DNA of 64,000 bases, from positions 32,001 through 96,000 of IMG/VR virus record IMGVR_UViG_3300040856_003054. The stretch is one strand, 5' to 3'. A program made the translations under genes and the position numbers. Of this stretch, positions 7,753 through 58,447 are shown piece by piece. Position 1 is the first letter of the stretch. The number at the start of each line of letters is the position of its first letter. The stretch comes from a virus. The notes under the pieces were generated by a model. That model saw only the letters and a list, made by a program, of their open reading frames with translations, was not told where the DNA came from and did not search any database.

Positions 7753-7754
7753 TT

Positions 7755-7762
7755 ATAAATAG
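7755..7762 (+). promoter_or_regulatory. T4-type late promoter TATAAATA
   Basis: Consensus about 40 nt upstream of ORF 7803, followed by an AAAGG-TAGG...CCT-CCTTT hairpin. Confidence 0.7.
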
Positions 7763-7802
7763 TTAAAATTAAAAAAGGTAGGCGCTCTCCTCCTTTAAGC
7801 AA

Positions 7803-8291
7803 ATGTCAAAAAGTAAAAAACATTTTTATGTCTATTATTCCTATGAACCGTGGGGAAGAGGTTATATAGGAAAAAGAGAATGTTGGTGTACTCCAGAAGA
7901 AGATGTAAAATACTTTGGTAGTTTTAGAGATAAGACATTTAAACCAACAGAAAAAATTATATTGGAAACATTTAGTAATGTAAATGATGCACTTAGTGCC
8001 GAATCTATGCTGCATTTTTTTTATGATGTAGATAATAATTCTCATTTTGTTAATACTTCAAAACAAACGACTACTAAATTTTATTTTAGTGCTTCCGGTA
8101 AAGATCATCCAAGATATGGAAAAGTAACTCCAAAAGAAGTTCGTGAAAAGCAAAGTAAAAGTATGATGGGTAAAAACAATCCAATGTATGGGAAAAAAAG
8201 ATGTCATAATGAAGAAACAAGATTAAAAATCAGCAAAAAAGTGAGAGAATATGAATTAAGAAAACTTCAACATCAATCTGGAGGTAACTAA
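7803..8291 (+). CDS. Free-standing GIY-YIG (Seg-like) homing endonuclease with NUMOD3
   Basis: FYVYYSYEPWGRGYIGKR motif; GKNNPMYGKK..H.EETRLKIS NUMOD3-like repeat; AT-rich. Confidence 0.8.
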   Translation: MSKSKKHFYVYYSYEPWGRGYIGKRECWCTPEEDVKYFGSFRDKTFKPTEKIILETFSNVNDALSAESMLHFFYDVDNNSHFVNTSKQTTTKFYFSASGKDHPRYGKVTPKEVREKQSKSMMGKNNPMYGKKRCHNEETRLKISKKVREYELRKLQHQSGGN

Positions 8292-8293
8292 TC

Positions 8294-10672: not shown

Positions 10673-10684
10673 TAAGAGGTAGAT

Positions 10685-11857
10685 ATGGCTCCTATTTTTA
10701 CTGGTTTTAGATTTGGGTTTGGTTCTGGTGGTGATGCAATTGTAAATAATTATTTTGGTGATGGTAGTGATGGTGCATTAAACACTAGTGGAAATGTCAC
10801 ATATACTGTATCAAATAAATCTGGAAGTTATGATGGAGACACCGTTGTATTACAATATTCTTCATTAACTGTCAATACTGGTCACATTTTAACAGTTGAT
10901 CAACCTTGCAGGGGATTAGTAATTTATGTTAATGGAAATTGTACTATAAATGGTACAATTAGTATGACATCAAAAGGTGGAAAATCCGATCCGACTTTGA
11001 GTGGGGGTAGTGATTCGTCAACAGTAAGTCCACTAGGTCTCAGGTGGATATTTAAAACACCTACACCAAATGGAGATTCTTTAACCATATCACCAGATCT
11101 TTATTCTGGTTGTGGAAACTTACTCAGAAGTGTTGCAGGTTCTGCTACTCCCATTTCTGATGGAACTATAATGGGAATATCAAGAGATGGATATGGACAA
11201 CCATCTAGACCAGGTGGAGATTCTGGTGGTTTTAATGGAGTATCTTGGACATTTACAAATCCATTTATAGTTGGGTCCGGTTCTGGTGGTGGTGGTGCTT
11301 CACTTCAAAATGGAGCTCCTTATCCTGGAACGGCTGGTGAAGGTGGTCTTGGTGGATGTTTTAGTGGAGGTGCTGGCGGCGGTGCTGCTGGTGGTCCTCC
11401 CTTTCCTGGACCTCTACCAGGCGGTGAAAACTATGGTGGGGCCGGCGGAGCTGCTTATGTTGGAACTAGTTATGCTCCTGCTTATGGTGCAGGTGGTGTT
11501 GGAAATCCTCCTGGAGCTAATGGTGGAGGAACTCCATCTCCTGTAACATCTTATGGAACGGGTGTTGGTGGAATGATAGTTTTAATTGTAGGCGGCACTT
11601 TGACACTTGGTGCATCTGCAAGTATTCAGGCAAAAGGAATCAGAGGACAAACCGTAAATCCTCCTGTTTATTATGGGAAGCCAGGTGGAGCGTCTGGAGG
11701 TGGAAATATAATGATAGTTGCAAAATCTTTCAGTGGTGCAACAGCAGGATCTTATGTTGGTGCAGACCCAACAAGTAAAATTGATGCCGATGGAGGTAGT
11801 GGCAATCCTGGCGGTAATGGTGGTAATGGAGGAATTTTGCTAGCGGAAGTTACCTAA
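10685..11857 (+). CDS. Glycine-rich tail/adhesin-like protein
   Basis: YFGDGSDG motif, extensive GGxGG tracts, GGGNIMIVA. Confidence 0.75.
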   Translation: MAPIFTGFRFGFGSGGDAIVNNYFGDGSDGALNTSGNVTYTVSNKSGSYDGDTVVLQYSSLTVNTGHILTVDQPCRGLVIYVNGNCTINGTISMTSKGGKSDPTLSGGSDSSTVSPLGLRWIFKTPTPNGDSLTISPDLYSGCGNLLRSVAGSATPISDGTIMGISRDGYGQPSRPGGDSGGFNGVSWTFTNPFIVGSGSGGGGASLQNGAPYPGTAGEGGLGGCFSGGAGGGAAGGPPFPGPLPGGENYGGAGGAAYVGTSYAPAYGAGGVGNPPGANGGGTPSPVTSYGTGVGGMIVLIVGGTLTLGASASIQAKGIRGQTVNPPVYYGKPGGASGGGNIMIVAKSFSGATAGSYVGADPTSKIDADGGSGNPGGNGGNGGILLAEVT

Positions 11858-11875
11858 GATAAATGTAAAAATTAT

Positions 11876-11904
11876 TTGACACTTCTAGAAAGTTTCTATA
11901 TAAT
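11876..11904 (+). promoter_or_regulatory. Consensus sigma70-type promoter TTGACA-N17-TATAAT
   Basis: Perfect -35/-10 with a 17-nt spacer, upstream of the oxygenase pair. Confidence 0.85.
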
Positions 11905-11937
11905 AGCGTTGAAGACATTATAGGGAGATGAAATCCG

Positions 11938-12558
11938 GTGGCGATGCAATCAATCTGGTACTACACTGACTTAAATCCAGAAATCATAGATATTCTGGAA
12001 CGAGACCTTTCAGAAAAGTTCGAAGAGCAAATGGCGGACAGTCGTTTACACGGCGACGCATTAAACAAAGATAAAAGAAACTCACAAAACGCCTGGATTC
12101 CAACAACTCATTGGGTTGGTGGATTTGTATGGCATTATATTGAACGAGCAAACCGTGAGAACTTCCTGTATGACCTCCGTTGTATTGATGGAGAATCTAT
12201 GCAGTTCACTAAGTATAGTGAAGGGCAGTTCTATGGTTGGCATAATGATGCAGGACTTGCGACTCAATACAAACCTGTAAGTGTCGGTAATCGTCAAGAT
12301 GGTCTTGCACAAGATTTCTTGAATGAGAACATTGAACTTGTGCGTAAACTTTCATTTGTGGTACAACTAAGTGACCCTGATGATTACGAGGGTGGCAACC
12401 TGCAACTTCTTGATGAGGCAGGACAGAGTTACATTGCACCTCGTAAGCGTGGCACTGTGATTCTGTTTGATTCTCGCACACAACATAGAGTTCTTAAAGT
12501 TACAAAAGGAACCCGTAAGTCACTGGTTGGCTGGACGGTGGGCTCGCGTTGGAAATAG
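11938..12558 (+). CDS. 2OG-Fe(II) oxygenase (prolyl-4-hydroxylase-like)
   Basis: WHND (HxD), RKLS, YEGG.L and HRV..VTKG.RKSLVGW motifs. Confidence 0.9.
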   Translation: MAMQSIWYYTDLNPEIIDILERDLSEKFEEQMADSRLHGDALNKDKRNSQNAWIPTTHWVGGFVWHYIERANRENFLYDLRCIDGESMQFTKYSEGQFYGWHNDAGLATQYKPVSVGNRQDGLAQDFLNENIELVRKLSFVVQLSDPDDYEGGNLQLLDEAGQSYIAPRKRGTVILFDSRTQHRVLKVTKGTRKSLVGWTVGSRWK

Positions 12559-12594
12559 GACCCCGATGGAAGTAACACTATAAGAGGTTAAATT

Positions 12595-13317
12595 ATGGCA
12601 GAACAAATGAGCGAACTGCAACTGATGATGCAGGAAAGGATGAATACGGGAACTGCATGGACTCGTAACGAATCCTTTGAAAAGAATGGATATTTGGTGA
12701 TTAAAAATCTGTGGGACCCAGAAGAACTTTATCATCCTCTTCCACAAGAACGTGGACAGATGAACTGGTGGGGTAAAAAAATGGACCAGTTTACTCATAG
12801 TGAAGTGGAAATGCAAGTTGAAGGTTCACTTGCGCGTTATTGGCACCCACAATACCGTCAGATTCATTGTGGTATTCGCACAAAACTAGAAGAAGCACTG
12901 GGTCGTAAACTTTATAATACTTATTATTACGATCGCTACTACTTCCCAGGTCAGGAACTTACACGTCACGCAGACCGTGATGCTTGTGAGATTTCAGTAA
13001 CAGTTCATATCAGCACTAACCTAGAAGGAAATGATGGTGATTGGCCTATCTGGATTAAAACTCCCGATACCTATGCTGATAAGAAAAAGACACAAGTTCT
13101 AGTTCCTGGTGAGAATCGCTCTGTGATTCTGAAAGCAGGTGACGGAATGGTTTACAAAGGTTGCGAACGCCCACACTGGCGTGATGTGATGCCTGATGCA
13201 AAAAGACGTAAGAAACTGTTTGGTAAGAGTCCTGAACTTTACTATCACCAAATCTTTTTTCATTATGTCTTACAAGATGGCCAACGTGCTCAATGTGCTT
13301 GGGATCGTGCCCGGTAG
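12595..13317 (+). CDS. 2OG-Fe(II) oxygenase-like protein
   Basis: L.RHADR.ACEIS, GD...YKGC...HWR and QIFFHYV motifs. Confidence 0.85.
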   Translation: MAEQMSELQLMMQERMNTGTAWTRNESFEKNGYLVIKNLWDPEELYHPLPQERGQMNWWGKKMDQFTHSEVEMQVEGSLARYWHPQYRQIHCGIRTKLEEALGRKLYNTYYYDRYYFPGQELTRHADRDACEISVTVHISTNLEGNDGDWPIWIKTPDTYADKKKTQVLVPGENRSVILKAGDGMVYKGCERPHWRDVMPDAKRRKKLFGKSPELYYHQIFFHYVLQDGQRAQCAWDRAR

Positions 13318-13392
13318 AGATAAATAATATGACTGACTGGTTGTCACTATTGTAGTCGAATAAATAACTAAAAGAGATTATAGCGAAAAGAA

Positions 13393-14148
13393 GTGGCACT
13401 TAATTTTCCTAGTTCTCCTACCATAGGAGATGTTTATACCGATACAACATCAGGGTTCTCCTATGAGTGGGACGGTACTGTATGGAAGAGTTATACACCA
13501 GCAAGTTCAAGTAATATTAGAGTATTAGATGATATTTCTGGTTCTTTTAATGGAAGTCAAAATACATTTTCACTTACTGTTTTAGGAACAGCATTAACAC
13601 CAACAAATGCACAACAACTTAGAATAGTTCTTGGTGGTGTTGTGCAGGGCCCAGGTACTGATTACACCGTAAGTGGTTCAAGTATATCTTTTACAACACC
13701 TCCAACAGGAGGTCTTTCTTTCTCTGGAGTATCTTTAGGACCTTCAATTCCTGTAAGTGTTCCTGGTGATGGAACTGTAACACCTGCAAAATTATCAACA
13801 GGTGGACCTTTTTGGAATACAAATGGGGATCTTTACATTGCTGGTATTAATACTATTCAGACATTAGATGTCAATGGTTCCGCTGATTTATCGCAATTAA
13901 ATGTAACTGGAGTTTCCACCGTTGGTATTGTCACTGGTGCGACTTATTATGGTGACGGATCAAACCTAACTGGTGTCATCAGTGGTGTAGGAATTGCAAC
14001 CGAATCCGGACTTGTAGGATCTGGAGCAACAGTTCTTGACTTTAGGGGAGCAGGGATTTCTACAGTCACTGTTTCTTCTGGTATTGCAACCGTTAATATT
14101 GAGGGTGGTGATGTTGGAATTAATCCTATTAATTATATTATATTTTAA
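13393..14148 (+). CDS. Tail fibre-associated structural protein
   Basis: MALNFPSSP..GD, LDDISGSFNG and YYGDGSNLTG motifs; TAAATA upstream. Confidence 0.75.
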   Translation: MALNFPSSPTIGDVYTDTTSGFSYEWDGTVWKSYTPASSSNIRVLDDISGSFNGSQNTFSLTVLGTALTPTNAQQLRIVLGGVVQGPGTDYTVSGSSISFTTPPTGGLSFSGVSLGPSIPVSVPGDGTVTPAKLSTGGPFWNTNGDLYIAGINTIQTLDVNGSADLSQLNVTGVSTVGIVTGATYYGDGSNLTGVISGVGIATESGLVGSGATVLDFRGAGISTVTVSSGIATVNIEGGDVGINPINYIIF

Positions 14149-14174
14149 TTCTAAATAAAATAAAGTAGAAAAAA

Positions 14175-14549
14175 ATGGCAGCACCAAACATAGTTAGAGT
14201 ATCTTCAATTATTGGGATGACGACAGCAGTAGGATTAAGCACTACTACAGATGTTGTTTTTCTTTCAAATGGAGCTTCTAGTGGGAAGGTTTTTAAAATT
14301 AATACGATAACAGCAACAAATATTGATGGAACAGATAATGCAGATATTACTGTGAGATATAATTTATCTGCAGCGGGTGCAGGTAGTTCTGTTCCTATTG
14401 CATATACTATTAGCGTTCCTGCAGATTCTTCTCTTGTTATTATTGGAAAAGATACACCAATGTATCTTGAAGAAAATAGGTCACTCACTGCACAATCATC
14501 TGCAATAGATGATATTGCTATTATGTGCTCGTATGAAGAAATTTTTTAA
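14175..14549 (+). CDS. Conserved virion structural protein
   Basis: MAAPNIV...YLEE...SYEEI family; TAAATA upstream. Confidence 0.65.
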   Translation: MAAPNIVRVSSIIGMTTAVGLSTTTDVVFLSNGASSGKVFKINTITATNIDGTDNADITVRYNLSAAGAGSSVPIAYTISVPADSSLVIIGKDTPMYLEENRSLTAQSSAIDDIAIMCSYEEIF

Positions 14550-14570
14550 TATAATTGAGGAAATAAAAAA

Positions 14571-15440
14571 ATGACCAAATATGTAGGAAATTATATTGGA
14601 TTTTCTAGTAATCCAAGCTTATATCAAGCTAGTGGTATTTGGAATAAATTTAATCAATATTTTTATAAAAAATTAAAGAGTTGGCCATATGCTGATGTTT
14701 ACATTGGTGGTGGTGAAGTTGGAATAACTTCTTCTGTCGATAATTATAATTATATTGCATTTAAATCTCCTGGATTTTTAAATGTAGCAAACATAAATCC
14801 CCAGGTTTCAATTGATTATTATGTTATAGCTGGAGGTGGTGGTGGTTCAGGTGGCGGTGGTGGTGCAGGTGGTGTTATATCTGGAACTATTCCAGGAGCA
14901 TCTATTGGAATAGGATCCTATCCGGTAACAGTTGGTGCTGCAGGAAATCCTAGCACCATAATTATTGGAACTGCATTTACCGCAACTGCTGGAGGTAGTG
15001 GAGGATCATATGGATGCGGTGGTAACGGAGGGCCTGGAGGTTCTGGAGGGGGTGGTAGGGCATATTGTGGTGGTGGCCCAAACCCTGCAGGAGCAGGAAT
15101 TCCGGGGCAGGGCAATCCGGGAGGAGATGGGAATACTTCACCACCTTATGGTGGAGGTGGCGGTGGTGGAAAAGGTGCATCTGGTCAGCCTGGAGGAAGT
15201 CATCCTTTAGGTGGAATTGGTGGTGCAGGTATTGGATACACTCAATTTCCTGCGTCCGTTGGTACTCCAGGACCAGATCCAAGCAGAAGATATTTTGCGT
15301 CTGGTGGAAGTGGAAGATCTGATTCTGGCGCTAGAAGTCCTGTTGGTTATGGAACTGGACCAAATAGTGGGGGTGGTGGTAGTGCAGGAGGCGAAGCTGC
15401 AGGATCTGGTATTGTTATAATTAGGTGGTATTTTAATTAA
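14571..15440 (+). CDS. Glycine-rich tail protein
   Basis: IDYYVIAGGGGG...GGGGAGG and a C-terminal GSGIVIIR.Y. Confidence 0.75.
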   Translation: MTKYVGNYIGFSSNPSLYQASGIWNKFNQYFYKKLKSWPYADVYIGGGEVGITSSVDNYNYIAFKSPGFLNVANINPQVSIDYYVIAGGGGGSGGGGGAGGVISGTIPGASIGIGSYPVTVGAAGNPSTIIIGTAFTATAGGSGGSYGCGGNGGPGGSGGGGRAYCGGGPNPAGAGIPGQGNPGGDGNTSPPYGGGGGGGKGASGQPGGSHPLGGIGGAGIGYTQFPASVGTPGPDPSRRYFASGGSGRSDSGARSPVGYGTGPNSGGGGSAGGEAAGSGIVIIRWYFN

Positions 15441-19595: not shown

Positions 19596-19861
19596 AACTG
19601 ATTTCCTTTAAGCATCGTGAGGATTATGGTGATGAGTGGTATGTTCAAATCCTTCATAACAAACGCTGGGCACTACTTCAAGCATCAGTTTCTTGGAATG
19701 AATTTGCTGCTTGGCCTTATATTCAATTAAAATCAGGTAATGGCAGTCTATTGAATCTTATGTTCTGGGCTTATAAGTTTGGATTTGATATTGATGTTTT
19801 TTCTAGGACCTGGAACTTTGAATACCTTAATGAACTTGATGAGGAAGAAGAAACTAAATAG
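19592..19861 (+). CDS. Hypothetical protein (similar to 22831)
   Basis: ATGA overlap; aromatic-rich. Confidence 0.65.
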   Translation: MKLISFKHREDYGDEWYVQILHNKRWALLQASVSWNEFAAWPYIQLKSGNGSLLNLMFWAYKFGFDIDVFSRTWNFEYLNELDEEEETK

Positions 19862-19865
19862 AAGT

Positions 19866-19916
19866 GCCTTAACTGACCGCAATCTGTAAGGTGGGAGGAG
19901 AGAAATCTCCTCCTTT
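19866..19916 (+). ncRNA. Putative endonuclease-associated antisense sRNA, copy 1
   Basis: TAAATA at 19855; stem GCCTTA/TAAGGT; AACTGACCGCA complementary to leader TGCGGTTAGTT; terminator GGAGGAGA-GAAA-TCTCCTCC-TTT; second TATAAATA at 19921. Confidence 0.65.
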
Positions 19917-19956
19917 GTAATATAAATACTAATGCGGTTAGTTTAAGAGTAGAACT

Positions 19957-20853: not shown

Positions 20854-20887
20854 GACACACCAAAATCTTGTATGAATGTCCTATAAT
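20831..20887 (+). promoter_or_regulatory. Palindrome-type early promoter overlapping the endonuclease 3' end
   Basis: GGACACTT-TACA-AACTGGAAT, TATAAT at 20882. Confidence 0.7.
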
Positions 20888-20914: not shown

Positions 20915-21184
20915 ATGAGATTTAGAAACATAGAATTTAGATGGAGTAAATGCAACAACAAGTATGAACTCGTCAAGTGGAATACTCCAACAGAAGATAG
21001 TTTCTTCAAAGATCCAACTTGTTATGTGATTGCCTTCTTTGATAAAGACAAAGAGGGTTATAATATGAGAACTATATCTTCAAGATTTTTTGAAGATAAA
21101 GATGCATTCGTAGTGGGAAAATACGCAATTGAGTTTCTCAACGAAACTTTTGAAATTGAAAGACAAGAAGAAGAACTTAAATAA
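20915..21184 (+). CDS. Conserved hypothetical protein
   Basis: MRFRNIEFRW...; first ATG after the promoter. Confidence 0.7.
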   Translation: MRFRNIEFRWSKCNNKYELVKWNTPTEDSFFKDPTCYVIAFFDKDKEGYNMRTISSRFFEDKDAFVVGKYAIEFLNETFEIERQEEELK

Positions 21185-21192
21185 ATAAAGAT

Positions 21193-21248
21193 GCTTATGT
21201 GTGTCGCAACCAGAAGCAAAGATGGGGTGCTTTCGGGCACCTTTTCTT
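21193..21248 (+). ncRNA. Putative endonuclease-associated antisense sRNA, copy 2
   Basis: TAAATA at 21182; stem TGCTT/AAGCA; GTGTCGCAA complementary to leader TTGCGACAC; terminator GGTGC-TTTCGG-GCACC-TTTT; TATAAATA at 21250. Confidence 0.65.
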
Positions 21249-21285
21249 GTATAAATAGTATTGCGACACAACATAAAGCAGAACT

Positions 21286-24175: not shown

Positions 24176-24667
24176 ATGAAGCACAAACTTCTCCAGAACA
24201 TCACTGAATATCGCAACTGGGCATGGTATGTCTATCAGTATTGGTATAACCATAAAAGTACCTTAACTCTATCAATTCTTGCGACTGATAAGGATCGTGA
24301 TGTTCGTTGTTGGGTTGCAAAACACCCAAACACAACAACAGAAACTTTAACAGTTCTTGTGACTGATGAGTATTGGGATGTTCGTTATTGGGTTGCACAA
24401 CACCCAAACACATCACAAGAAACTCTAGCAATTCTTGTGACTGATGAGGATTGGGTTGTTCGTTGTGCGGTTGCACAACACCCAAACACATCACAAGAAT
24501 CTCTAGCAGTCCTTGCGACTGATAAGTATCCTGTTGTTCGTATTTGGGTTGCACAACACCCAAACACATCACAAGAAACTCTAGCAATTCTTGCGACTGA
24601 TATGGATTCTGTTGTTCGTCGTTGTGTTGCAAAACTCCCACCCACATCACAAGAAACAGACTCTTGA
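24176..24667 (+). CDS. Leucine-rich-variant (LRV)/HEAT-like repeat protein
   Basis: About five 26-aa repeats LA.L.TD....VR..VA.HPNTS.E, seen as 78-bp DNA repeats. Confidence 0.85.
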   Translation: MKHKLLQNITEYRNWAWYVYQYWYNHKSTLTLSILATDKDRDVRCWVAKHPNTTTETLTVLVTDEYWDVRYWVAQHPNTSQETLAILVTDEDWVVRCAVAQHPNTSQESLAVLATDKYPVVRIWVAQHPNTSQETLAILATDMDSVVRRCVAKLPPTSQETDS

Positions 24668-28836: not shown

Positions 28837-28894
28837 TTGAACTGCGGATAGTTGAACCAAAAGATGATATATAAGAGTTGGTATAAATAATAAT

Positions 28895-28951
28895 GCTCTA
28901 ATGAGTTCGCATCCATAAGAGTGGAAAAGGTGTCTTCAGGCACCTTTTCTT
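28895..28951 (+). ncRNA. Putative endonuclease-associated antisense sRNA, copy 3
   Basis: TATAAATA at 28882; stem GCTCT/AGAGT; TGAGTTCGCA complementary to leader TGCGAACTCA; terminator AAAAGGTGTC-TTCA-GGCACCTTTT; TATAAATA at 28953. Confidence 0.65.
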
Positions 28952-28990
28952 GTATAAATAGTATTGCGAACTCAATTTAGAAGCAGAACT

Positions 28991-34842: not shown

Positions 34843-35066
34843 CTGAAGAAGACAAGTATGCTCTCAAAGAGTTTCTGCGTGGTGCTGGTGCATTTCTTCT
34901 TGCCTCTGCTGTCTTTCTTGCTTACTTTGCATCTGGTGATAAACCAATCAATGAAGCATCATTTGAAGTGGTTGATAAGTATGATAATCGTTGTAATGTA
35001 ATACGATATACTCCTAATAATTCTGCACGATATGTTTATTTCTTGGATTGTTCATCTAAATACTAA
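34839..35066 (+). CDS. Small membrane protein
   Basis: TM plus FEVVD.Y...C.VIRY.P......YFLDC. Confidence 0.7.
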   Translation: MTEEDKYALKEFLRGAGAFLLASAVFLAYFASGDKPINEASFEVVDKYDNRCNVIRYTPNNSARYVYFLDCSSKY

Positions 35067-35067
35067 T

Positions 35068-35118
35068 GCCTTAACTGACCGCAATCTGTAAGGTGGGAGG
35101 AGAGAAATCTCCTCCTTT
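35068..35118 (+). ncRNA. Putative endonuclease-associated antisense sRNA, copy 4 (identical to copy 1)
   Basis: TAAATA at 35057; 35067-35190 identical to 19865-19988; TATAAATA at 35123. Confidence 0.65.
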
Positions 35119-35158
35119 GTAATATAAATACTAATGCGGTTAGTTTAAGAGTAGAACT

Positions 35159-35854: not shown

Positions 35855-35912
35855 GGACACTTTACAAACTGGCACGGGGGCACTTGAAAACAGGTGCCTT
35901 TTGTTGTATAAT
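35855..35912 (+). promoter_or_regulatory. Palindrome-type early promoter with terminator-like spacer hairpin
   Basis: GGACACTT-TACA-AACTGGCAC, GGCACTTG/CAGGTGCC-TTTT, TATAAT at 35907. Confidence 0.75.
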
Positions 35913-35934: not shown

Positions 35935-36528
35935 ATGACTGATAATCTCCCAGTTCCTGATGATTTGCCTTATTTAAATCTATCTCAAAGTGAATTGGAT
36001 GAATTGAGAAAATCAAAGAAAGAATTAACGGAATATGGTAAACAGAAGTTGAGAGAACTTATCTACAAAGAGGATATGCGAAAAATGGAAGATGCCGCAA
36101 AAGACCTTGTTCATAAAAATCTTACACACGAAGAGATGACCACAGGAGAACTTATGGACACTGAAAAGTTCCAAGAAGAACTTTCTGAACAGAAAGTATT
36201 TGATGCCGATAAGTTTGCGGAGGAAAATAGTATGGTAAGAAATCATCGTATCCTTGACCGATATAACATGTTCTACAATACTGAATGTTCTGGTCTCACT
36301 TGGGGTACACATATCACACCAGAGTTTCAACAGGCAATGGCATTAGAGTGTATGCTTGATGCGTTGAGGTATGAGAACTTTAACCATGAGTTTGATGTTG
36401 TTTCTACTGCTGACATCAATGCACTGATTGATGGATTGTATCAACAAGGTAAAGATTATCTGGAACGAGTGAAGACACTTCAACAACCGTCACAAGAGAG
36501 CACCAAAACTGATTTGGATGCTCTATAA
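35935..36528 (+). CDS. Hypothetical protein
   Basis: ORF after the promoter. Confidence 0.65.
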   Translation: MTDNLPVPDDLPYLNLSQSELDELRKSKKELTEYGKQKLRELIYKEDMRKMEDAAKDLVHKNLTHEEMTTGELMDTEKFQEELSEQKVFDADKFAEENSMVRNHRILDRYNMFYNTECSGLTWGTHITPEFQQAMALECMLDALRYENFNHEFDVVSTADINALIDGLYQQGKDYLERVKTLQQPSQESTKTDLDAL

Positions 36529-36529
36529 T
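36473..36529 (+). promoter_or_regulatory. Palindrome-type early promoter
   Basis: AGACACTT-CAAC-AACCGTCAC, hairpin AGAGCA-CCAAA/TTTGG-A-TGCTCT, TATAAT at 36524. Confidence 0.7.
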
Positions 36530-36552
36530 AGTATTATACACAATCAACCACA

Positions 36553-36810
36553 ATGATTTCTCCTTACAATGTAGTTCCTGGAACTGATATTGTTCATAGC
36601 ATCACTGATTGTTATGAACTCTGTGATGAAGCAGAAGGATGCACTCACACTGTAAAACTTAATGCGGATAATGGTGGTGTTTACTTGGAATCAATAGGAA
36701 AGCAACACGATAGTGAGCACAGAGGTATCACTGAATATATGACTATCTCAAACAAAGAACTTGCTATAGTAGTCGCAAAAAGGATTTTGGAATTGTACAA
36801 CGCAGTATAA
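36553..36810 (+). CDS. Hypothetical protein
   Basis: ORF after the promoter. Confidence 0.65.
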   Translation: MISPYNVVPGTDIVHSITDCYELCDEAEGCTHTVKLNADNGGVYLESIGKQHDSEHRGITEYMTISNKELAIVVAKRILELYNAV

Positions 36811-36818
36811 ATAAAAAT

Positions 36819-36877
36819 GTCTGTTTGGACTGCAATCTCTACGGACAAGATTAGGTGCTCTTTGGGGCACCTTTTCT
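36819..36877 (+). ncRNA. Putative endonuclease-associated antisense sRNA, copy 5
   Basis: TATAAATA at 36806; stem TGTCTGT/ACGGACA; TCTGTTTGGACTGCA complementary to leader TGCAGTCCAAATAGA; terminator AGGTGCTC-TTTG-GGGCACCT-TTT; TATAAATA at 36890. Confidence 0.7.
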
Positions 36878-36922
36878 ATTATAAAGTTTTATAAATAATA
36901 ATGCAGTCCAAATAGAATAGAA

Positions 36923-37744
36923 ATGACTAATCATAGTCCTAGAATTTATGTGTATAAAATCACATTTGAAGAAGTTCCTTATTATTACTATGGAGTCCAT
37001 AAGGAAAATAAGTTTGATGAATACTATATGGGTTCTCCTTATACTCATAAATGGGTTTGGGATTTTTATACACCTAAAAAACAAATACTTCAACTTTTTG
37101 AGTTTAGTGATGAAGGTTGGTCAGAAGCAAACGAAATAGAACAAAGATTGATTAGACCTGTATTCAATACAGATAAATGGTGTCTCAACGAAAATTGTGG
37201 TAGAGTAGTTTCTCTTAATATCTTAAGGGAAAATGGTAAAAAAGTTAGTGAAAAATATTCAAGTATAAATGGTAAAAAGAATGGAAAAAAATCTTATGAA
37301 CTTGGATTAGGAATTCACGGAAGAACCAAGGAGCAAAGAACTGAAGATTGTGGTAAAGGTGGGAAAATAATGGGAGAAAAACATAAAAAAGATGGAACTG
37401 GAATTTTTGCAATTACTTCAGAAGAAAGAACTGAAATCGGTAAAAGAATGGGAAAAATAAATTATGAACTTGGTATTGGTGTTCACGGAAGAACCAAAGA
37501 AAAAATGACCGAAGATGGGAAAAAGGGAGGTAAAATCACAGCAGAAAATCATAAAAGAAATAAAACAGGAATTTTTGGAATAGATGACGAACAAAAAAGA
37601 AAAAATAGTATAAAAGGTGGTAGAAGGACATCCTCTCAAAAATGGATGTGCCTTGAAACTGGTTATGTTAGTAATGCTGGTGGACTTTCTCATTATCAAA
37701 AGAAAAGAAATATAGACACATCTAAAAGAGTTAGAATATCATAA
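36923..37744 (+). CDS. Free-standing GIY-YIG (Seg-like) homing endonuclease
   Basis: IYVYKITF...YYYYGVH...YMGS; C-terminus like that of 21286. Confidence 0.8.
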   Translation: MTNHSPRIYVYKITFEEVPYYYYGVHKENKFDEYYMGSPYTHKWVWDFYTPKKQILQLFEFSDEGWSEANEIEQRLIRPVFNTDKWCLNENCGRVVSLNILRENGKKVSEKYSSINGKKNGKKSYELGLGIHGRTKEQRTEDCGKGGKIMGEKHKKDGTGIFAITSEERTEIGKRMGKINYELGIGVHGRTKEKMTEDGKKGGKITAENHKRNKTGIFGIDDEQKRKNSIKGGRRTSSQKWMCLETGYVSNAGGLSHYQKKRNIDTSKRVRIS

Positions 37745-37802
37745 GGACACTTCTCAAACTGGAACAAGGGCACTTGAACTCAGGTGCCTTTTCTTGTATA
37801 AT
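37745..37802 (+). promoter_or_regulatory. Palindrome-type early promoter with terminator-like spacer hairpin
   Basis: GGACACTT-CTCA-AACTGGAAC, GGCACTTGA/TCAGGTGCC-TTTT, TATAAT at 37797. Confidence 0.75.
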
Positions 37803-37823
37803 GACTTCATACGCAACAAACTG

Positions 37824-38048
37824 ATGAAGTGTAAAACTTGTAAACACTGGAATGGAAACTCACTAGGTATTGGAACTTGTAGTGGTCTTATTCCACAATT
37901 CAAGATTATTCCACTACCCCCTGTGATTGATAAGAAAGGAAACCCACAGAAGAAGAGCAAATTACTTCAAGTGCGTTCTGGAGTCAGTGGTGTGAATAAT
38001 CCTATGACTCCTGCTGATTTTTATTGTAAAAACTGGAGCAACAAATGA
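37824..38048 (+). CDS. Small Cys-rich protein
   Basis: CKTCKHW...C...T..DFYC..W. Confidence 0.65.
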   Translation: MKCKTCKHWNGNSLGIGTCSGLIPQFKIIPLPPVIDKKGNPQKKSKLLQVRSGVSGVNNPMTPADFYCKNWSNK

Positions 38049-38311
38049 AAATCGAATTCAAAGGACACTCACAAACTGACCGAGAAGTAGAACTCTCTCA
38101 ACAAGAATTACATACTCTTTTTGAGATTATGAGAGAAGAGTTCAAAGAACACATCACCTATGCTAGGTTCCGTAATTGTTATTCTCCAACTGCAACTGAA
38201 AAGTCTATCATAGATTTTTGCAATTCTCATAATGTTGACTGTGAATATGATCGTGATAGGGTAGCATTCTTTACTGCCATCCTCAATAACCTCAAGAATC
38301 CTTATCAATGA
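38045..38311 (+). CDS. Hypothetical protein
   Basis: GGAG RBS; ATGA overlap. Confidence 0.65.
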   Translation: MKIEFKGHSQTDREVELSQQELHTLFEIMREEFKEHITYARFRNCYSPTATEKSIIDFCNSHNVDCEYDRDRVAFFTAILNNLKNPYQ

Positions 38312-38484
38312 ACATTACATTTAAGCAGCATATTCTCTTGTTATCAGGGCTTACAGTGTTATATGATAGTGCTGAAAAAGTTGGTAACTCTGAAATGCAA
38401 CACGAAATTCTAGAACTTTCTGAGATTATTCAAGAGTATGCTGAAAGGAGACAAAGAGCAGATGAACGAAGAAAAGAATCCTGA
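38308..38484 (+). CDS. Hypothetical protein (58 aa, not in the ORF track)
   Basis: ATGA overlap; fills the gap between neighbours. Confidence 0.55.
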   Translation: MNITFKQHILLLSGLTVLYDSAEKVGNSEMQHEILELSEIIQEYAERRQRADERRKES

Positions 38485-38644
38485 TGAGATTGTCGTCAAG
38501 GACATTGATATGATTCACTTTGAGATGATGGATGATGGATTTCTCTGGTGCGGAATTTATCATAAGAATGGTCAAGTTGACCACTTTAATATCACATCAA
38601 AGAAGAATAAACTCTCTACTTTATGGATGCCTGATTGTGGGTAA
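38462..38644 (+). CDS. Hypothetical protein
   Basis: NPDEIVV.D....HFEMMD...W.GIY. Confidence 0.65.
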   Translation: MNEEKNPDEIVVKDIDMIHFEMMDDGFLWCGIYHKNGQVDHFNITSKKNKLSTLWMPDCG

Positions 38645-38735
38645 TAAATACTCTTACGATTAAGAAAAGATATAATGTCTCTTGCTCACATCCCTTGGGT
38701 AGTTTATAAATATAAATATAAAAAAATATGATCGT

Positions 38736-40517
38736 ATGGGATTAAACATAGGAATTACCAATGATTACTTATTGAATACCCCTAATGTTGCATCGGCAGT
38801 AGAAAAGTATGTTTTATGGGCAAAAGCAAGGCAGGGAGGTTCTCCTGGTCTTAAACCATCATTAGATTTAGACTTTGCAAGAAATAAGAGTCTTATCGAT
38901 AATGTTACTGGGCAGCAGTTGGTGGATTTCACCCGCGCTAGTAGTGGCACGTATGTCGGCAGCGATGGGCTGATTAAGACGGCGGTGACGAATTTGTTGG
39001 TGCGGAGTGAGGAGTTTGACAGTAATTGGGCAATTTTTGGCCTGAGTGTTACGGCAAATCAAGAGACAGCCCCAAGTGGGCTGCTAGCTGCTGATCTTAT
39101 TTCTATTGCTGGTTCCGGCCAAGGAATTTGGCAATTTATCACATGCACCCCTGGATTACAGTACACAGCGTCTGTTTATGTAAAACTCGGTACGCTTTCG
39201 GCTGCAGACTATAAAATCGCCGTGCGTGACGATACTGCCGGAGTGTTTATAGCAGCAGACATAACACCCACTCAAACACCGTCATCGACCGGCTGGACGC
39301 GAATTTCTTATACAGTGACAGCCCCTGCTGGGTGTACGACGCTTCGCTTTTACCCTTTCCGAAATACGACCAATGTTACGGGAACAATCTACCTCTGGGG
39401 CGCCCAACTAGAGCAGTCGTCTACTGTGGGTGAATACGTCCCCACCACCAGCACGATTAACAGTGCTCCACGGTTTGATCACGATCCCACCACGGGCGAG
39501 AGCTTGGGGCTGTTGGTGGAGGAAAGTAGGACGAATTTGTTGCTGCGGAGTGAGGAGTTTGATGATGCTTACTGGACAAAAACTCTTGTCACAATTGCCG
39601 CAAACGATGACACCGCTCCAAACGGGCAGATTTCCGCAGAAAAGATTACGCCGACCGTAGACAATGGTGGACACTTAGTACGCAGAGATGTTTCTGGCTT
39701 AACAGCAAATGCGGTTTACACGCTGTCTTTCTACGCAAAATCAGCGGGCTACTCAAGAGCCGGGCTGATTATAGGCACGACGGATCTTTCAACTCGGGCC
39801 ACGGCTGAGTTCAATCTTAATGCCGCGTCAGTAACTGCTCAATCAGGCCAATTAGCGACTTCGGTGGAAAGCGTTGGAGGCGGTTGGGTAAAGATTTCGC
39901 TGTCTGCTCAGAACATAAATACTACTACCTACAGATGCGAAATTAGGGTTTTGGGCTTAGGTGGCGTGACTGACTCTTATACCGGAGACGGCACATCTGG
40001 CATCTACCTCTGGGGCGCCCAACTAGAAGCCGGCGCCTTCCCCACCAGCTACATCCCCACCGAAGATGCCACGGTGACCCGCAGTGCTGACGTGGCCAGC
40101 GACACCACCAGAGGCGGCAACATCCGCAGCCTGTTCACGCAGTTCCGCAGCCCTGCATCAGGCACCAGGCCGGTGGTTTCGTTGGACGACAACACCGCCA
40201 ACGAGCGCATCGAGATCCTGACCAGCGGCACTGATCCGAAGCTGCTGGTAACGGCCGGCGGCAGCGCTGTGGCTGATCTGGATGCAGGCACCGTTGTGGC
40301 CAATGTGGCTGCCCGTGCTGCGGCTCGCTTCAACACCGACAACTACGCCATCAGTATCAACGGCGGCACGTCGCAGCTCGATACCTCCGGCACGCTGCCC
40401 ACCGTGAACCGCATCAGGATCGGCAGCAATCAAGCTGACAACTACCTGAACGGCACCATCGCACGGATCACCGGCTGGGACGTGGTGCTGCCCAACCTGC
40501 CACCGATTACCCAGTAG
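38736..40517 (+). CDS. Putative receptor-binding/spike protein with tandem carbohydrate-binding-like domains and a ConA/LamG-like C-terminus
   Basis: PSLDLDFA, FTRASSGTY, PRFDHDP.TGESLGLLVEE.RTN, IYLWGAQLE twice, TSYIPT...VTRSAD; TATAAATA at 38705; mostly GC-rich. Confidence 0.8.
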   Translation: MGLNIGITNDYLLNTPNVASAVEKYVLWAKARQGGSPGLKPSLDLDFARNKSLIDNVTGQQLVDFTRASSGTYVGSDGLIKTAVTNLLVRSEEFDSNWAIFGLSVTANQETAPSGLLAADLISIAGSGQGIWQFITCTPGLQYTASVYVKLGTLSAADYKIAVRDDTAGVFIAADITPTQTPSSTGWTRISYTVTAPAGCTTLRFYPFRNTTNVTGTIYLWGAQLEQSSTVGEYVPTTSTINSAPRFDHDPTTGESLGLLVEESRTNLLLRSEEFDDAYWTKTLVTIAANDDTAPNGQISAEKITPTVDNGGHLVRRDVSGLTANAVYTLSFYAKSAGYSRAGLIIGTTDLSTRATAEFNLNAASVTAQSGQLATSVESVGGGWVKISLSAQNINTTTYRCEIRVLGLGGVTDSYTGDGTSGIYLWGAQLEAGAFPTSYIPTEDATVTRSADVASDTTRGGNIRSLFTQFRSPASGTRPVVSLDDNTANERIEILTSGTDPKLLVTAGGSAVADLDAGTVVANVAARAAARFNTDNYAISINGGTSQLDTSGTLPTVNRIRIGSNQADNYLNGTIARITGWDVVLPNLPPITQ

Positions 40518-40532
40518 TCGGCAACACTAATC

Positions 40533-40682
40533 ATGACTGAAGAACTCCTACCCATCGTTGCTGCAGAAATCGGGAATGGCATTGCTTGTGACCGACCAGA
40601 CAAAGAAACTGCCAGACGAGTTTTAGCCCATGTAGAAACGTGGCTGGCTGCTCAAACCACTACCCCTACCTCTCATGACTGA
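40533..40682 (+). CDS. Small protein in the GC-rich island (49 aa, not in the ORF track)
   Basis: MTEELLPIVAAEIG...; starts with the same ATGACTGAAGAACT as the next gene. Confidence 0.5.
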   Translation: MTEELLPIVAAEIGNGIACDRPDKETARRVLAHVETWLAAQTTTPTSHD

Positions 40683-40983
40683 AGAACTGCTCACACCCCC
40701 CACCCCCACGATGTTCCGCTTCCCAAATGCTGCTGTTGGCATGGCTGCGCTTGATGATGCTGGGCTACTTGATGACGACTTGAATCCCATCACCGCTAGT
40801 CATAACCACGCCCTAGATGTAATCGGCACCATCTCCCGTGGTGGTGAATGGGACGATGAAGGTAATGTCATCACTTCGCCTGAGGTGCTGGAGGGCTTTC
40901 ATTTGAACTACCAAGGACCGCTGCCGGATGGGTGGGACGCTTATGCGGTGTGGCCGGAGCAGCCGGTGAGGGCGTGGGCGTGA
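40675..40983 (+). CDS. Fibre-associated small protein (GC-rich island)
   Basis: ASH.HALDVIG.I...G.WD.EG.VI..P....GFH.N...P..P.R.WA. Confidence 0.7.
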   Translation: MTEELLTPPTPTMFRFPNAAVGMAALDDAGLLDDDLNPITASHNHALDVIGTISRGGEWDDEGNVITSPEVLEGFHLNYQGPLPDGWDAYAVWPEQPVRAWA

Positions 40984-41029
40984 AACTGTCACACACAATA
41001 CACCATAAACCACAAAGACCTGCTATAAT
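40984..41029 (+). promoter_or_regulatory. Early promoter retaining only the right half of the palindrome
   Basis: AACTGTCAC directly after the island; TATAAT at 41024 with 31-nt spacing. Confidence 0.6.
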
Positions 41030-41035
41030 ATCATT

Positions 41036-41272
41036 ATGAAATACCTGAACTCTAAATGGGAAATGATTGTGTGGGGATTTGAACTATTCCAGAATGCAAT
41101 CTATTTTCGGTTGACATTAGAGGATAACATTGATAGATTATCCTTCTTTGAAGAACTCTCTGCTGGGTATATTGAAATGACTGATGAGTATCTAATGTCT
41201 CAACCCGACTTTGACCCATATAATCTATCGGGTAGAGATTCTTATTATTCTTATGTGATGAGTCAAAAGTGA
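41036..41272 (+). CDS. Hypothetical protein
   Basis: ORF after the promoter. Confidence 0.6.
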   Translation: MKYLNSKWEMIVWGFELFQNAIYFRLTLEDNIDRLSFFEELSAGYIEMTDEYLMSQPDFDPYNLSGRDSYYSYVMSQK

Positions 41273-41493
41273 TGGACTTTCCAGTGTTCTTAAATAAATG
41301 GATAATCTCCAATAAGTTTCTTAAGTATACTCCATTCTGGTGGTGGTACAGGTTAATATCTCATCAAGGTTTTCGCTTTGATGATTATTATGTGTGGAAG
41401 GAGTTTTGGATGTCCTTAAATCAAGGATATATGGATATGAACTATAAATGGGAGTTTGAACAATATTGGAGTGTAAAACCTAAACATAAATAA
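41269..41493 (+). CDS. Trp-rich hypothetical protein
   Basis: GTGA overlap. Confidence 0.6.
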   Translation: MMDFPVFLNKWIISNKFLKYTPFWWWYRLISHQGFRFDDYYVWKEFWMSLNQGYMDMNYKWEFEQYWSVKPKHK

Positions 41494-41497
41494 TGAT

Positions 41498-41555
41498 GTC
41501 TGTTTGGACGGCAATCTCTACAGACAAAGATTAGGTGCTTTCGGGCACCTTTTCT
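41498..41555 (+). ncRNA. Putative endonuclease-associated antisense sRNA, copy 6
   Basis: TAAATA at 41487; stem TGTCTGT/ACAGACA; TCTGTTTGGACGGCA complementary to leader TGCCGTCCAAATAGA; terminator AGGTGC-TTTCGG-GCACCT-TTT; TATAAATA at 41558. Confidence 0.7.
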
Positions 41556-41590
41556 ATTATAAATAATAATGCCGTCCAAATAGAATAAAG

Positions 41591-42226
41591 ATGAACTATC
41601 TAAAGATTTATTGTAATCTTATCAGGAAAGCAGAGAATAGAACTCCACCTGAAGGTTATACGGAAAAACACCACATATTTCCTAAAAGTATTTTTGGAGA
41701 TAATGATAGAGTTGTAATATTAAGTGGAAGAGAGCATTATATTGCTCACGCATTATTAGAAAAAGCATTTATAAAAAGGTATGGTGGAAATCACAAAAAA
41801 ACTAAAAAGATGTCTTTTGCTTTTTGGTGTATGAATAACCAAAAATCAAAAAATACTTATTTAAATTCTTATTTTTATGAAAGTTCCCGAATGAGAGTTA
41901 GTGGGGAAAATAATATAGCAAAAGACCCAATTATTCGTAAAAAAATAAGTGAGAAAAAACGAGGAAAAAATCATCATCAATATGGAAAACCACATTCCCA
42001 GGAAACTAAAAATAAGATAAGTAAAAAGAGGAGTGGAAAAAATAATCATATGTCTAAACATTGGAAAATTACATTTTCCAATGGAAATGAAATTGTATTG
42101 TGTGGATTATATAAATGGTCCAGGGAAAATGGATATTGTGCTACTCATATTATTGGAGTTTGTCGTGGAAAAAGAAACTATCATAAAGATATTGTGTCAG
42201 TTGAAGAACTGGCACAAATTTCTTGA
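41591..42226 (+). CDS. Free-standing HNH (Mob-like) homing endonuclease with NUMOD3
   Basis: YTEKHHIFPKS..G.N..VV.L..REHYIAHALL. Confidence 0.85.
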   Translation: MNYLKIYCNLIRKAENRTPPEGYTEKHHIFPKSIFGDNDRVVILSGREHYIAHALLEKAFIKRYGGNHKKTKKMSFAFWCMNNQKSKNTYLNSYFYESSRMRVSGENNIAKDPIIRKKISEKKRGKNHHQYGKPHSQETKNKISKKRSGKNNHMSKHWKITFSNGNEIVLCGLYKWSRENGYCATHIIGVCRGKRNYHKDIVSVEELAQIS

Positions 42227-56371: not shown

Positions 56372-56419
56372 GTGGGCAGCAACATTGCGGGGGCGTAAGG
56401 TTGTGTAAGTCCCACTTTT
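56372..56419 (+). ncRNA. Variant antisense stem-loop upstream of the HNH endonuclease (copy 7)
   Basis: Outer stem GTGGG/CCCAC plus TTTT, inner stem CAAC/GTTG, loop TTGCGGGGG complementary to leader CCCCCGCAA after TATAAATA at 56424. No upstream TAAATA seen. Confidence 0.45.
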
Positions 56420-56450
56420 ATGGTATAAATAATAATACCCCCGCAAAAGA

Positions 56451-58136: not shown

Positions 58137-58343
58137 ATGACTGACACTGTTAATGTTCTTCCTCACATCCGAGAACTGAAAGATACTTGGCGTCGTCAAG
58201 ATTTCAGTTTCACTAAATCGCAGAAAGAAGAATACGATCTCTTGATTGCTGCTCGTCGTGAAAGGGTAAAACAACATTATAAAGAAGGAAAAGTTTGCAC
58301 AATCAGCAAATCTGCAATGGACAAACTTAAAGAAGATAACTAA
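58137..58343 (+). CDS. Conserved cyanophage hypothetical protein
   Basis: EL...WR.QDF..T..Q...YD.L..ARRERV. Confidence 0.7.
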   Translation: MTDTVNVLPHIRELKDTWRRQDFSFTKSQKEEYDLLIAARRERVKQHYKEGKVCTISKSAMDKLKEDN

Positions 58344-58351
58344 ATAATGAT

Positions 58352-58409
58352 GCCTGAAGTTGACTGACATCTCTACAGGCAGAGGAGGAGCAGAAATGCT
58401 CCTTTTCTT
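58352..58409 (+). ncRNA. Putative endonuclease-associated antisense sRNA, copy 8
   Basis: TAAATA at 58341; stem TGCCTG/CAGGCA; loop AAGTTGACTGAC complementary (12/12) to leader GTCAGTCAACTT; terminator AGGAGCA-GAAA-TGCTCCT-TTT; TATAAATA at 58411. Confidence 0.7.
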
Positions 58410-58447
58410 GTATAAATACTTAAGTCAGTCAACTTAAGAGCAGAACT

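Follow-up and report, generated by a model that had tools for sequence, protein, structure and literature searches.

Paired changes in a mobile leader cassette of nuclease genes in a virus record read as a T4-like cyanophage

Two near-identical stretches of DNA, each lying directly before a nuclease gene, are found at 36806-36922 (copy 5) and 41487-41590 (copy 6) of a 64,000-nucleotide piece of the IMG/VR virus record IMGVR_UViG_3300040856_003054. This piece, here called the window and numbered from its first base, comprises bases 32001-96000 of the record, which is 136,140 bases long with a G+C content of 35.8%. We read the record as a T4-like cyanophage because its only named DNA relatives are the Synechococcus myoviruses S-SRM01 and S-WAM1. 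The near-identity of the two stretches, first noted in a reading of the sequence without database searches (the sequence-only reading), was recovered on alignment as 95 matches, 8 mismatches, and 15 gap columns, 10 of which are a single insert in copy 5 (36880-36889). Each copy consists, in order, of a TAAATA box, 4 nt, a 7-bp hairpin, a G+C-rich hairpin with a T run, TATAAATA, 4 nt, a 15-nt stretch, and 6 nt before the ATG of the nuclease gene. A 26-nt probe that allowed any base at the variable position matched copies 5 and 6 alone, and none of 100 shuffles had any match.

Copy 5, on the plus strand like all features described here, begins with an outer late-promoter-like box, P1 (TATAAATA, 36806-36813), which contains the stop codon of the upstream open reading frame (ORF) 36553-36810. 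Hairpin 1 (TGTCTGT ... ACGGACA, 36818-36847), predicted in the minimum free energy (MFE) fold of the short RNA and paired in 95.1% of cells in homologues, presents the 15-nt arm X (TCTGTTTGGACTGCA, 36820-36834, with variable base T36831). Between the arms stand an intrinsic-terminator-like hairpin with its T run (36853-36879; predicted by fold and by a consensus scan, which marked 36853-36872 plus the tail), the 10-nt insert with a decayed promoter copy (TATAAAGT, absent from copy 6), and the putative inner late promoter P2 (TATAAATA, 36890-36897; the same motif in 71 of 75 homologues). Arm X' (TGCAGTCCAAATAGA, 36902-36916, with compensating base A36905) would open the late leader, and 6 nt separate it from the ATG of a 273-amino-acid (aa) nuclease gene (36923-37744). 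In copy 6, the corresponding features are P1 (CATAAATA, 41485-41492), hairpin 1 (TGTCTGT ... ACAGACA, 41497-41526, from fold and homologue pairing), arm X (TCTGTTTGGACGGCA, 41499-41513, variable base G41510), the terminator-like hairpin and T run (41533-41557; scan match 41533-41550 plus tail), P2 (TATAAATA, 41558-41565, by motif), arm X' (TGCCGTCCAAATAGA, 41570-41584, compensating base C41573), and a nuclease gene of 211 aa (41591-42226). In both copies, the late-promoter consensus sits between the arms, 4 nt before X'.

The 15-nt leader stretch is the reverse complement of the 5' arm of hairpin 1 and half its loop, with one G.U pair. The sequence-only reading had reported that the loop changes from GGACTGCA in copy 5 to GGACGGCA in copy 6 while the leader changes in step from TGCAGTCC to TGCCGTCC; we located both changes, as T36831 versus G41510 and as A36905 versus C41573. 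The stem swap reported with them is also present, the 3' arm reading ACGGACA at 36841-36847 and ACAGACA at 41520-41526 opposite TGTCTGT, so that U.G becomes U-A. The pairing of the arms exceeds the extent described earlier and comprises 15 contiguous pairs, TCTGTTTGGAC[T/G]GCA with TGC[A/C]GTCCAAATAGA. T36831:A36905 and G41510:C41573 form the twelfth pair of this 15-bp helix, which overlaps the 5' arm of the local hairpin 1.

Homologues were collected from viral contigs by a scan anchored on the hairpin 3' arm and spacer, in which neither arm was fixed (92 stretches and 90 usable instances). The resulting alignment, A2, holds 75 distinct cassettes of the copy 5/6 type, including both window copies; its cells count sequences rather than events, and at pair 26:126 one G.U state, found in 45 sequences, has clearly been inherited. 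Pairing in the long helix extends to 98.7% of the 1125 cells, with both-sided change at 8 of its 15 pairs (171 cells). The observed paired fraction, cell count, or covariation score was equaled in 0 of 500 column shuffles, and sliding the partner by 1 to 3 columns lowered pairing to 35 to 51%. At the varied pair, G:C occurs in 31 cassettes, C:G in 25, and U:A in 19, and none is unpaired. Two or three of these states are found on 6 of 19 otherwise identical arm backgrounds, and there have therefore been at least seven separately compensated switches. These observations uphold the proposal that the pairing is under selection; frequent uncompensated changes at the varied pair, for which a check of homologues had been set beforehand, did not occur. 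In all, the 75 cassettes carry 26 distinct arms. As side observations, the varied pair (A2 columns 34:118) is never A:U in the 75 cassettes, and its neighbors 32:120 and 33:119 are almost fixed (70/75 and 73/75) with no obvious constraint. An insert of 10 to 16 nt between terminator and inner promoter is present in 27 of the 75, with the look of a decayed promoter (TTATAAACTC and variants), which suggests a tandem duplication of the promoter region.

Among the same 1125 cells, the non-Watson-Crick combinations are G.U in 93 (at 8 pairs), A.C in 8 (at 2 pairs), and others in 7. This spectrum points to selected pairing in RNA of the coding (plus) strand and not in a DNA palindrome, because neither a DNA palindrome nor RNA of the other strand would favor G.T over A.C.

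The sequence-only reading described a compensatory change between copies 5 and 6. The paired difference is real, but it did not arise as a change between sister copies within this genome. Outside the helix core, the copies differ from each other at 20 of 99 columns, whereas each has relatives in other phages that differ from it at only 5 of 98 (copy 5) or 5 of 88 columns (copy 6). Since each is nearer to relatives in other phages than to the other, copies 5 and 6 are not sisters, and the T:A and G:C states are, on these distances, two alleles from a polymorphic cassette population.

The two downstream genes are likely to encode nucleases of different superfamilies, as had been claimed, although the two assignments differ in their basis. 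The copy 6 protein is an HNH homing endonuclease with NUMOD3 motifs by profile matches (phrog_655 homing endonuclease, 5.2e-34; phrog_12434 HNH endonuclease, 6.3e-13; NUMOD3, 6.2e-12), and no Pfam HNH model matched it at an E value of ≤0.01. The copy 5 protein, with no Pfam or PHROG match, belongs to a family of 1,922 database proteins that have no Pfam domain, and it is likely of the GIY-YIG type from its modeled fold alone. PDB sequence searches with both nucleases returned nothing at an E value of ≤0.1. The AlphaFold 2 (AF2) model of the copy 5 protein (mean predicted local distance difference test score [pLDDT], 78.7) has a GIY-YIG-like N-terminal domain of beta-beta-alpha-beta-alpha order followed by helical repeats. 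It matches the I-TevI catalytic domain 1mk0 with the middling score of Z 7.8 (root mean square deviation, 2.7 Å over 82 residues); each of the top seven VIA rows is a GIY-YIG-type nuclease by its listing or is related to one, UvrC domains score Z 4.4 to 5.0, and the Foldseek E value is weak (0.72). The family has invariant Y, YYG, E73, and N89 columns, which are putative equivalents of the I-TevI catalytic residues. Inside the copy 5 gene, two tandem 168-nt repeats (37271-37606, 70% identity) appear as repeated helix pairs in the model, and some homologues of this protein are mislabeled “general stress protein YciG” by their source.

The suggestion that the cassette moves independently of the nuclease was supported, since a single arm sequence precedes up to four nuclease N-terminal types. 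The arm TCTGTTTGGACGGCA is found before four such types and one variant; over the 75 cassettes, type A follows 37, B 21, C 10, D 4, and others 3. The reverse case is seen within the window, where copies 6 and 7 have a nuclease in common (82% DNA identity from 41584/56447) but not a cassette.

All 10 nuclease genes of the record are preceded by a cassette, with differing arms, and 8 of these lie within the window. Their best arm helices are 8 to 15 bp long and always 3 to 6 nt after TATAAATA, whereas the nine other TATAAATA sites of the record reach a helix score of at most 8.0 by the same measure. Beyond copies 5 and 6, the window holds cassette A (19853-19956; the same layout with different arms, AACTGACCGCA / TGCGGTTAGTT), cassette B (21180-21285; TGTGTCGCAA / TTGCGACACA), cassette C (28882-28990; TGAGTTCGCA / TGCGAACTCA), cassette D (35055-35158; arms identical to those of A), cassette 7 (56372-56450; TTGCGGGGG / CCCCCGCAA), and cassette 8 (58339-58447; AAGTTGACTGAC / GTCAGTCAACTT). 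Cassette 7 has neither an outer box nor a separate hairpin 1, its arm lying in the loop of the terminator hairpin itself, and its nuclease is related to that of copy 6 (family D9). No solo hairpin-plus-terminator unit lacking P2 and X' was found in the record by a terminator-arm search.

A contig scan made before the one described above was anchored on the terminator 3' arm and promoter alone and found at least 119 stretches. Among the matches listed there were 120 instances, of which 9 were too near a locus end, leaving 111 usable; among these, the helix score was ≥10 in 104 and ≥8 in 109. The two failures among the matches listed were an unrelated site (L105) and L047. Together with the 92 stretches of the second scan, this brings the module to no fewer than about 200 stretches of viral contigs. 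We considered L047 as an empty (virgin) site and rejected this; it is a nuclease-deleted remnant of an L056-type locus. Compared with L056 3886-4460, L047 1989-2060 (reverse strand) lacks the sequence from the fourth leader-arm base to near the 3' end of the nuclease gene, and the deletion left hairpin, terminator, and promoter in place. The cultured phage S-SRM01 also carries the module, at NC_070963.1 48434-48535 (L187 1501-1602), where the arm pair is 16 bp long and the gene that follows is annotated as an HNH endonuclease. In its genome, the promoter pattern occurs at six places, which are candidate cassettes, and the annotated stretch that we inspected has no feature for the module. The accessible text of the S-SRM01 genome paper has no occurrence of promoter, terminator, or small RNA (PMC8557907).

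Predicted folds differ with the RNA considered. In a short RNA that spans the first box through the T run, hairpin 1 and the terminator hairpin form and leave the arm exposed (−27.2 and −24.7 kcal/mol for copies 5 and 6, respectively), whereas in a read-through RNA the MFE structure is the long-range 15-bp helix, which encloses the terminator (−44.5 and −39.9 kcal/mol). Taken by itself, the late leader is predicted to be nearly open (−4.3 and −5.6 kcal/mol). Hairpin 1 is itself conserved in part: its second pair (22:50), which lies outside the long helix, is GC in 55, AU in 13, and GU in 7 of the 75 cassettes and never A.C. Arm position 4 is contested by both structures, and here the long helix is paired in 75/75 while the hairpin 1 pair is broken in 22/75; the long helix is thus more strictly conserved than hairpin 1. 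The hairpin partner column at this position was fixed by the second-scan pattern but not by that of the first scan, in which five rows (L034, L042, L045, L046, and L059) show the same unrepaired C in TCTAT variants. Two further candidates within hairpin 1 were rejected. An inner GGA:UCU helix in its loop fails in that arm positions 8 to 10 vary and CTCT does not, and a small peptide (ATG 36817, a 25-codon frame) fails in that many homologues have ATA or GTG at the start and spacer indels shift the frame. Rfam gave no match at gathering score over the window and none at an E value of ≤1 for 36700-37000.

We consider it somewhat more probable than otherwise that the cassette is a leader mask of the T4 type, from which only transcripts begun at the inner late promoter escape. 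It would then be a portable control head of about 100 nt for free-standing homing-endonuclease genes of T4-like cyanophages. A plus-strand transcript started upstream and running past the terminator would carry both X and X' as RNA, and the 15-bp X:X' helix would cover positions −7 to −21 of the nuclease start and may block ribosome entry. T4 late transcripts start about 6 nt after the box; transcripts from P2 would thus begin inside X', lack X, and have an open leader that can be translated. Because only such transcripts would be translated, nuclease output would be set by the nuclease's own late promoter wherever the cassette lands. The unit would also insulate itself, the terminator stopping incoming transcription, the mask silencing what leaks through, and the inner late promoter alone yielding translatable mRNA, while a unit after the gene would restart early transcription. 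We infer the promoter and terminator activities, the transcript start, the read-through, and the translational block from motifs and folds. Consistent with this layout, a sigma-70-type promoter (35884-35912, 11/12 matches) lies upstream of the ORFs at 35935-36810, a run that ends at the copy 5 terminator. Before ORF 38736-40517, which encodes a 593-aa tail-protein-like product (phrog_5939, 1.9e-82), there are two overlapping TATAAATA boxes at 38705-38718, and because of these, the transcripts that approach cassette 6 from upstream may be late and not early ones.

Several points weigh against the leader mask. Between the helix and the ATG lie 6 nt, no clear Shine-Dalgarno sequence falls within the helix, and few transcripts may carry both arms because a good terminator lies between them. 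A mask acting only in cis leaves unexplained both the invariant TAAATA of the outer box at its fixed spacing and the covarying hairpin 1 pair outside the long helix. Furthermore, the helix core is uncoupled from its scaffold, which hints at selection on the address itself, and the start, end, and read-through of transcripts are predictions here. RNA data, in the form of assembled contigs at depth 1 to 7 from four metatranscriptome runs, cover the ORFs upstream of both copies and stop at 36842-36854 (X6, X9, and X24) and at 41501-41521 (X6 and X9), and among the contigs listed none falls on the nuclease ORFs; such contigs show neither ends nor strand nor small RNAs, however, and we counted them as no evidence either way.

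Some of what the mask leaves unexplained would be accounted for if hairpin 1 and the terminator were released as a trans-acting antisense small RNA (sRNA) of about 60 nt with address specificity, a possibility that we hold only tentatively and that can coexist with a cis mask. A separate sRNA had already been named in the sequence-only reading. P1 would then be a late promoter or an RNase site, the loop and 5' arm would base-pair to the P2 mRNA at its 5' end, and this pairing would set a threshold for nuclease translation, with different helix cores making separate specificity groups. TAAATA in the outer box is invariant in 75/75 homologues, 3 to 4 nt from hairpin 1, and the full box is NATAAATA in 62/75. 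The late promoter motifs of T4 and cyanophage S-PM2 are TATAAATA and NATAAATA, respectively, in the accessible text of PMC2984593, where the latter is the S-PM2 late-promoter consensus. The box is not kept merely as a stop codon because, of the 71 cassettes that follow a long ORF, 31 have that ORF's stop outside the box, and its box-spacer-TG layout repeats that of P2. The covariation of hairpin pair 22:50, and the prediction that the short RNA folds as two hairpins, one of them its own terminator-like hairpin, with the arm exposed, speak for the sRNA as well. On the other side, the sRNA is a prediction from sequence; the second box position is C in 13/75 homologues (NCTAAATA) and in 4 of the 10 cassettes of the record; cassette 7 does without outer box and hairpin 1; and hairpin 1 is mismatched in 22/75. 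Specificity itself gives a mixed picture. Cognate duplexes in the record reach −19.6 to −28.1 kcal/mol, against −6 to −15 for most non-cognate ones, but the cross-duplex of copies 5 and 6 still reaches −20.2, compared with −24.9 and −26.4 for the cognate duplexes, so that one pair costs 5 to 6 kcal/mol and gives little thermodynamic discrimination; this cross-duplex matches in strength the duplexes that cassettes 7 and c9 form between their own arms. The idea that a single paired change may create a new specificity group thus finds no support in the energies. The same arm also occurs twice in one genome, in cassettes A and D here and in two cassettes of L151 before different nucleases. The diversity of arms favors an address, and coupling between core and scaffold is weak (r = 0.10 to 0.14): in 40 cassette pairs with scaffolds 0 to 4 columns apart, an average of 2.2 of the 9 core positions still differ, and only 38% of the pairs have identical cores. 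Such uncoupling could reflect either selection for diverse addresses or recombination homogenizing the scaffolds. Per site, diversity in the core is 0.40, the same value as in the freest spacer columns (0.40); there is therefore no overall excess over neutral change that would speak for diversifying selection on the core. That the cassette is a two-gene unit, in which a late antisense RNA of about 60 nt titrates the mRNA 5' end and the 6- to 9-nt core is an address kept diverse by selection, appears to us possible but doubtful.

Two other explanations seem less probable still. The helix might be a processing or stability element, such as a double-strand RNase site at which read-through RNA is cut, and not a ribosome block. 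Covariation shows the pairing and not its role, the predicted 15-bp helix encloses the terminator hairpin, and T-odd and T-even phages do use double-strand RNase sites. We nevertheless find this improbable: 15 bp is short for RNase III, the 3' arm lies exactly where a ribosome must bind, and cleavage leaves unexplained why X' is fixed at the start of the P2 transcript. Most improbable, in our view, is that the arms act at the DNA level, as a recombination or replication signal, or were matched by template switching with no RNA function. They do form an inverted repeat 50 to 70 nt apart, and template switching can copy a change from arm to arm in one step and so could speed compensation. However, the excess of G.U over A.C is unexpected for pairing in DNA or the other strand, and the 3' arm always begins 3 to 6 nt after a late promoter motif, just before the ATG.

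The logic of the leader mask is known from T4, where I-TevI, I-TevII, I-TevIII, and segB, together with Aeh1 mobE, combine an inhibitory hairpin with a late promoter whose position leaves that hairpin out of late transcripts, and where genes e, soc, and 49 carry masks with a late promoter in the hairpin (accessible text of PMC2988022). As in the T-even masks, the cassette's structure would form only on transcripts started upstream, the late promoter would drop the 5' arm, and GIY-YIG and HNH nucleases would be controlled alike. In the cassette, unlike in those masks, the arms are 50 to 70 nt apart and enclose an intrinsic-terminator-like hairpin; the 3' arm would be the very start of the late leader, off the Shine-Dalgarno sequence and ATG; the 5' arm is carried by a conserved hairpin of its own, preceded by a second late-promoter-like box; and the whole cassette is mobile, common to at least four nuclease types, and polymorphic in its core.

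In antisense control, as in ColE1 RNA I/RNA II, the R1 CopA/CopT incompatibility groups, and the hok/sok type I toxin-antitoxin system, specificity lies in loop bases. The putative sRNA resembles these in being a short structured RNA with a terminator and a loop complementary to the leader of a potentially harmful gene, and paired base changes would likewise change its specificity. Their RNAs, however, come from opposite strands of one segment, whereas the cassette arms are two segments of the same strand; a switch of the cassette therefore needs two changes where opposite-strand systems need one.

Two other phage elements invite comparison. The promoter-early stem-loop (PeSL) cassettes of T4-type phages are, like ours, short terminator-plus-promoter units at the borders of shuffled modules, but they carry an early sigma-70 promoter and not TATAAATA late boxes, and the accessible text does not mention arm pairing for them (PMC4122927). 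That text likewise contains neither “late promoter” nor “cyanophage” (PMC4122927). PeSL-like units do lie after nuclease stop codons in the window, at 35876-35912 and 37766-37802, and as repeats D13/D15 at 20877, 22061, 24142, 24790, and 33488; they consist of a terminator-like hairpin and a sigma-70-type promoter (TTGAAA/TTGAAC-17-TATAAT), with a conserved GACACTT...AACTGG element before them. CfrI of cyanophage S-PM2, an antisense transcript of about 225 nt that runs on the opposite strand across a homing endonuclease gene and psbA (accessible text of PMC2984593), is also a noncoding RNA linked to a homing endonuclease gene in a T4-like cyanophage. The sRNA here is putative and, unlike in CfrI, both cassette partners are on the coding strand.

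When phages co-infect a cell, homing endonucleases influence which alleles prevail, and restraint of their expression has been little studied beyond T4 and its close relatives. No description of the cassette was found in the search hits examined, which came from openly accessible articles. We file the mask logic as known and, as new, the terminator inside the helix, the second box with its hairpin, the portability across nuclease families, and the polymorphic core. A known logic would thus recur in a self-insulating, portable head that has been exchanged between at least four types of nuclease. The helix core, with 26 arm variants on a nearly fixed scaffold and hardly any unpaired intermediates, offers a natural experiment in compensatory evolution. 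Should the short RNA work in trans, the cassettes would amount to a natural library of orthogonal RNA regulator/leader pairs and a new layer of phage-phage competition. Were the two-gene reading true, dozens of largely orthogonal sRNA/leader pairs would circulate among cyanophages, and co-infecting phages or co-resident cassettes would silence only nucleases with the same address. The cultured carrier S-SRM01 makes the question directly testable.

Elsewhere in the window, four tandem 78-nt repeats with 81 to 87% identity (family D6) lie at 24265-24654, and long glycine-rich repeats of the GGTGGT type (D1, 35 copies) occur in large ORFs at 6455-15200, as in cyanophage structural and fiber proteins.

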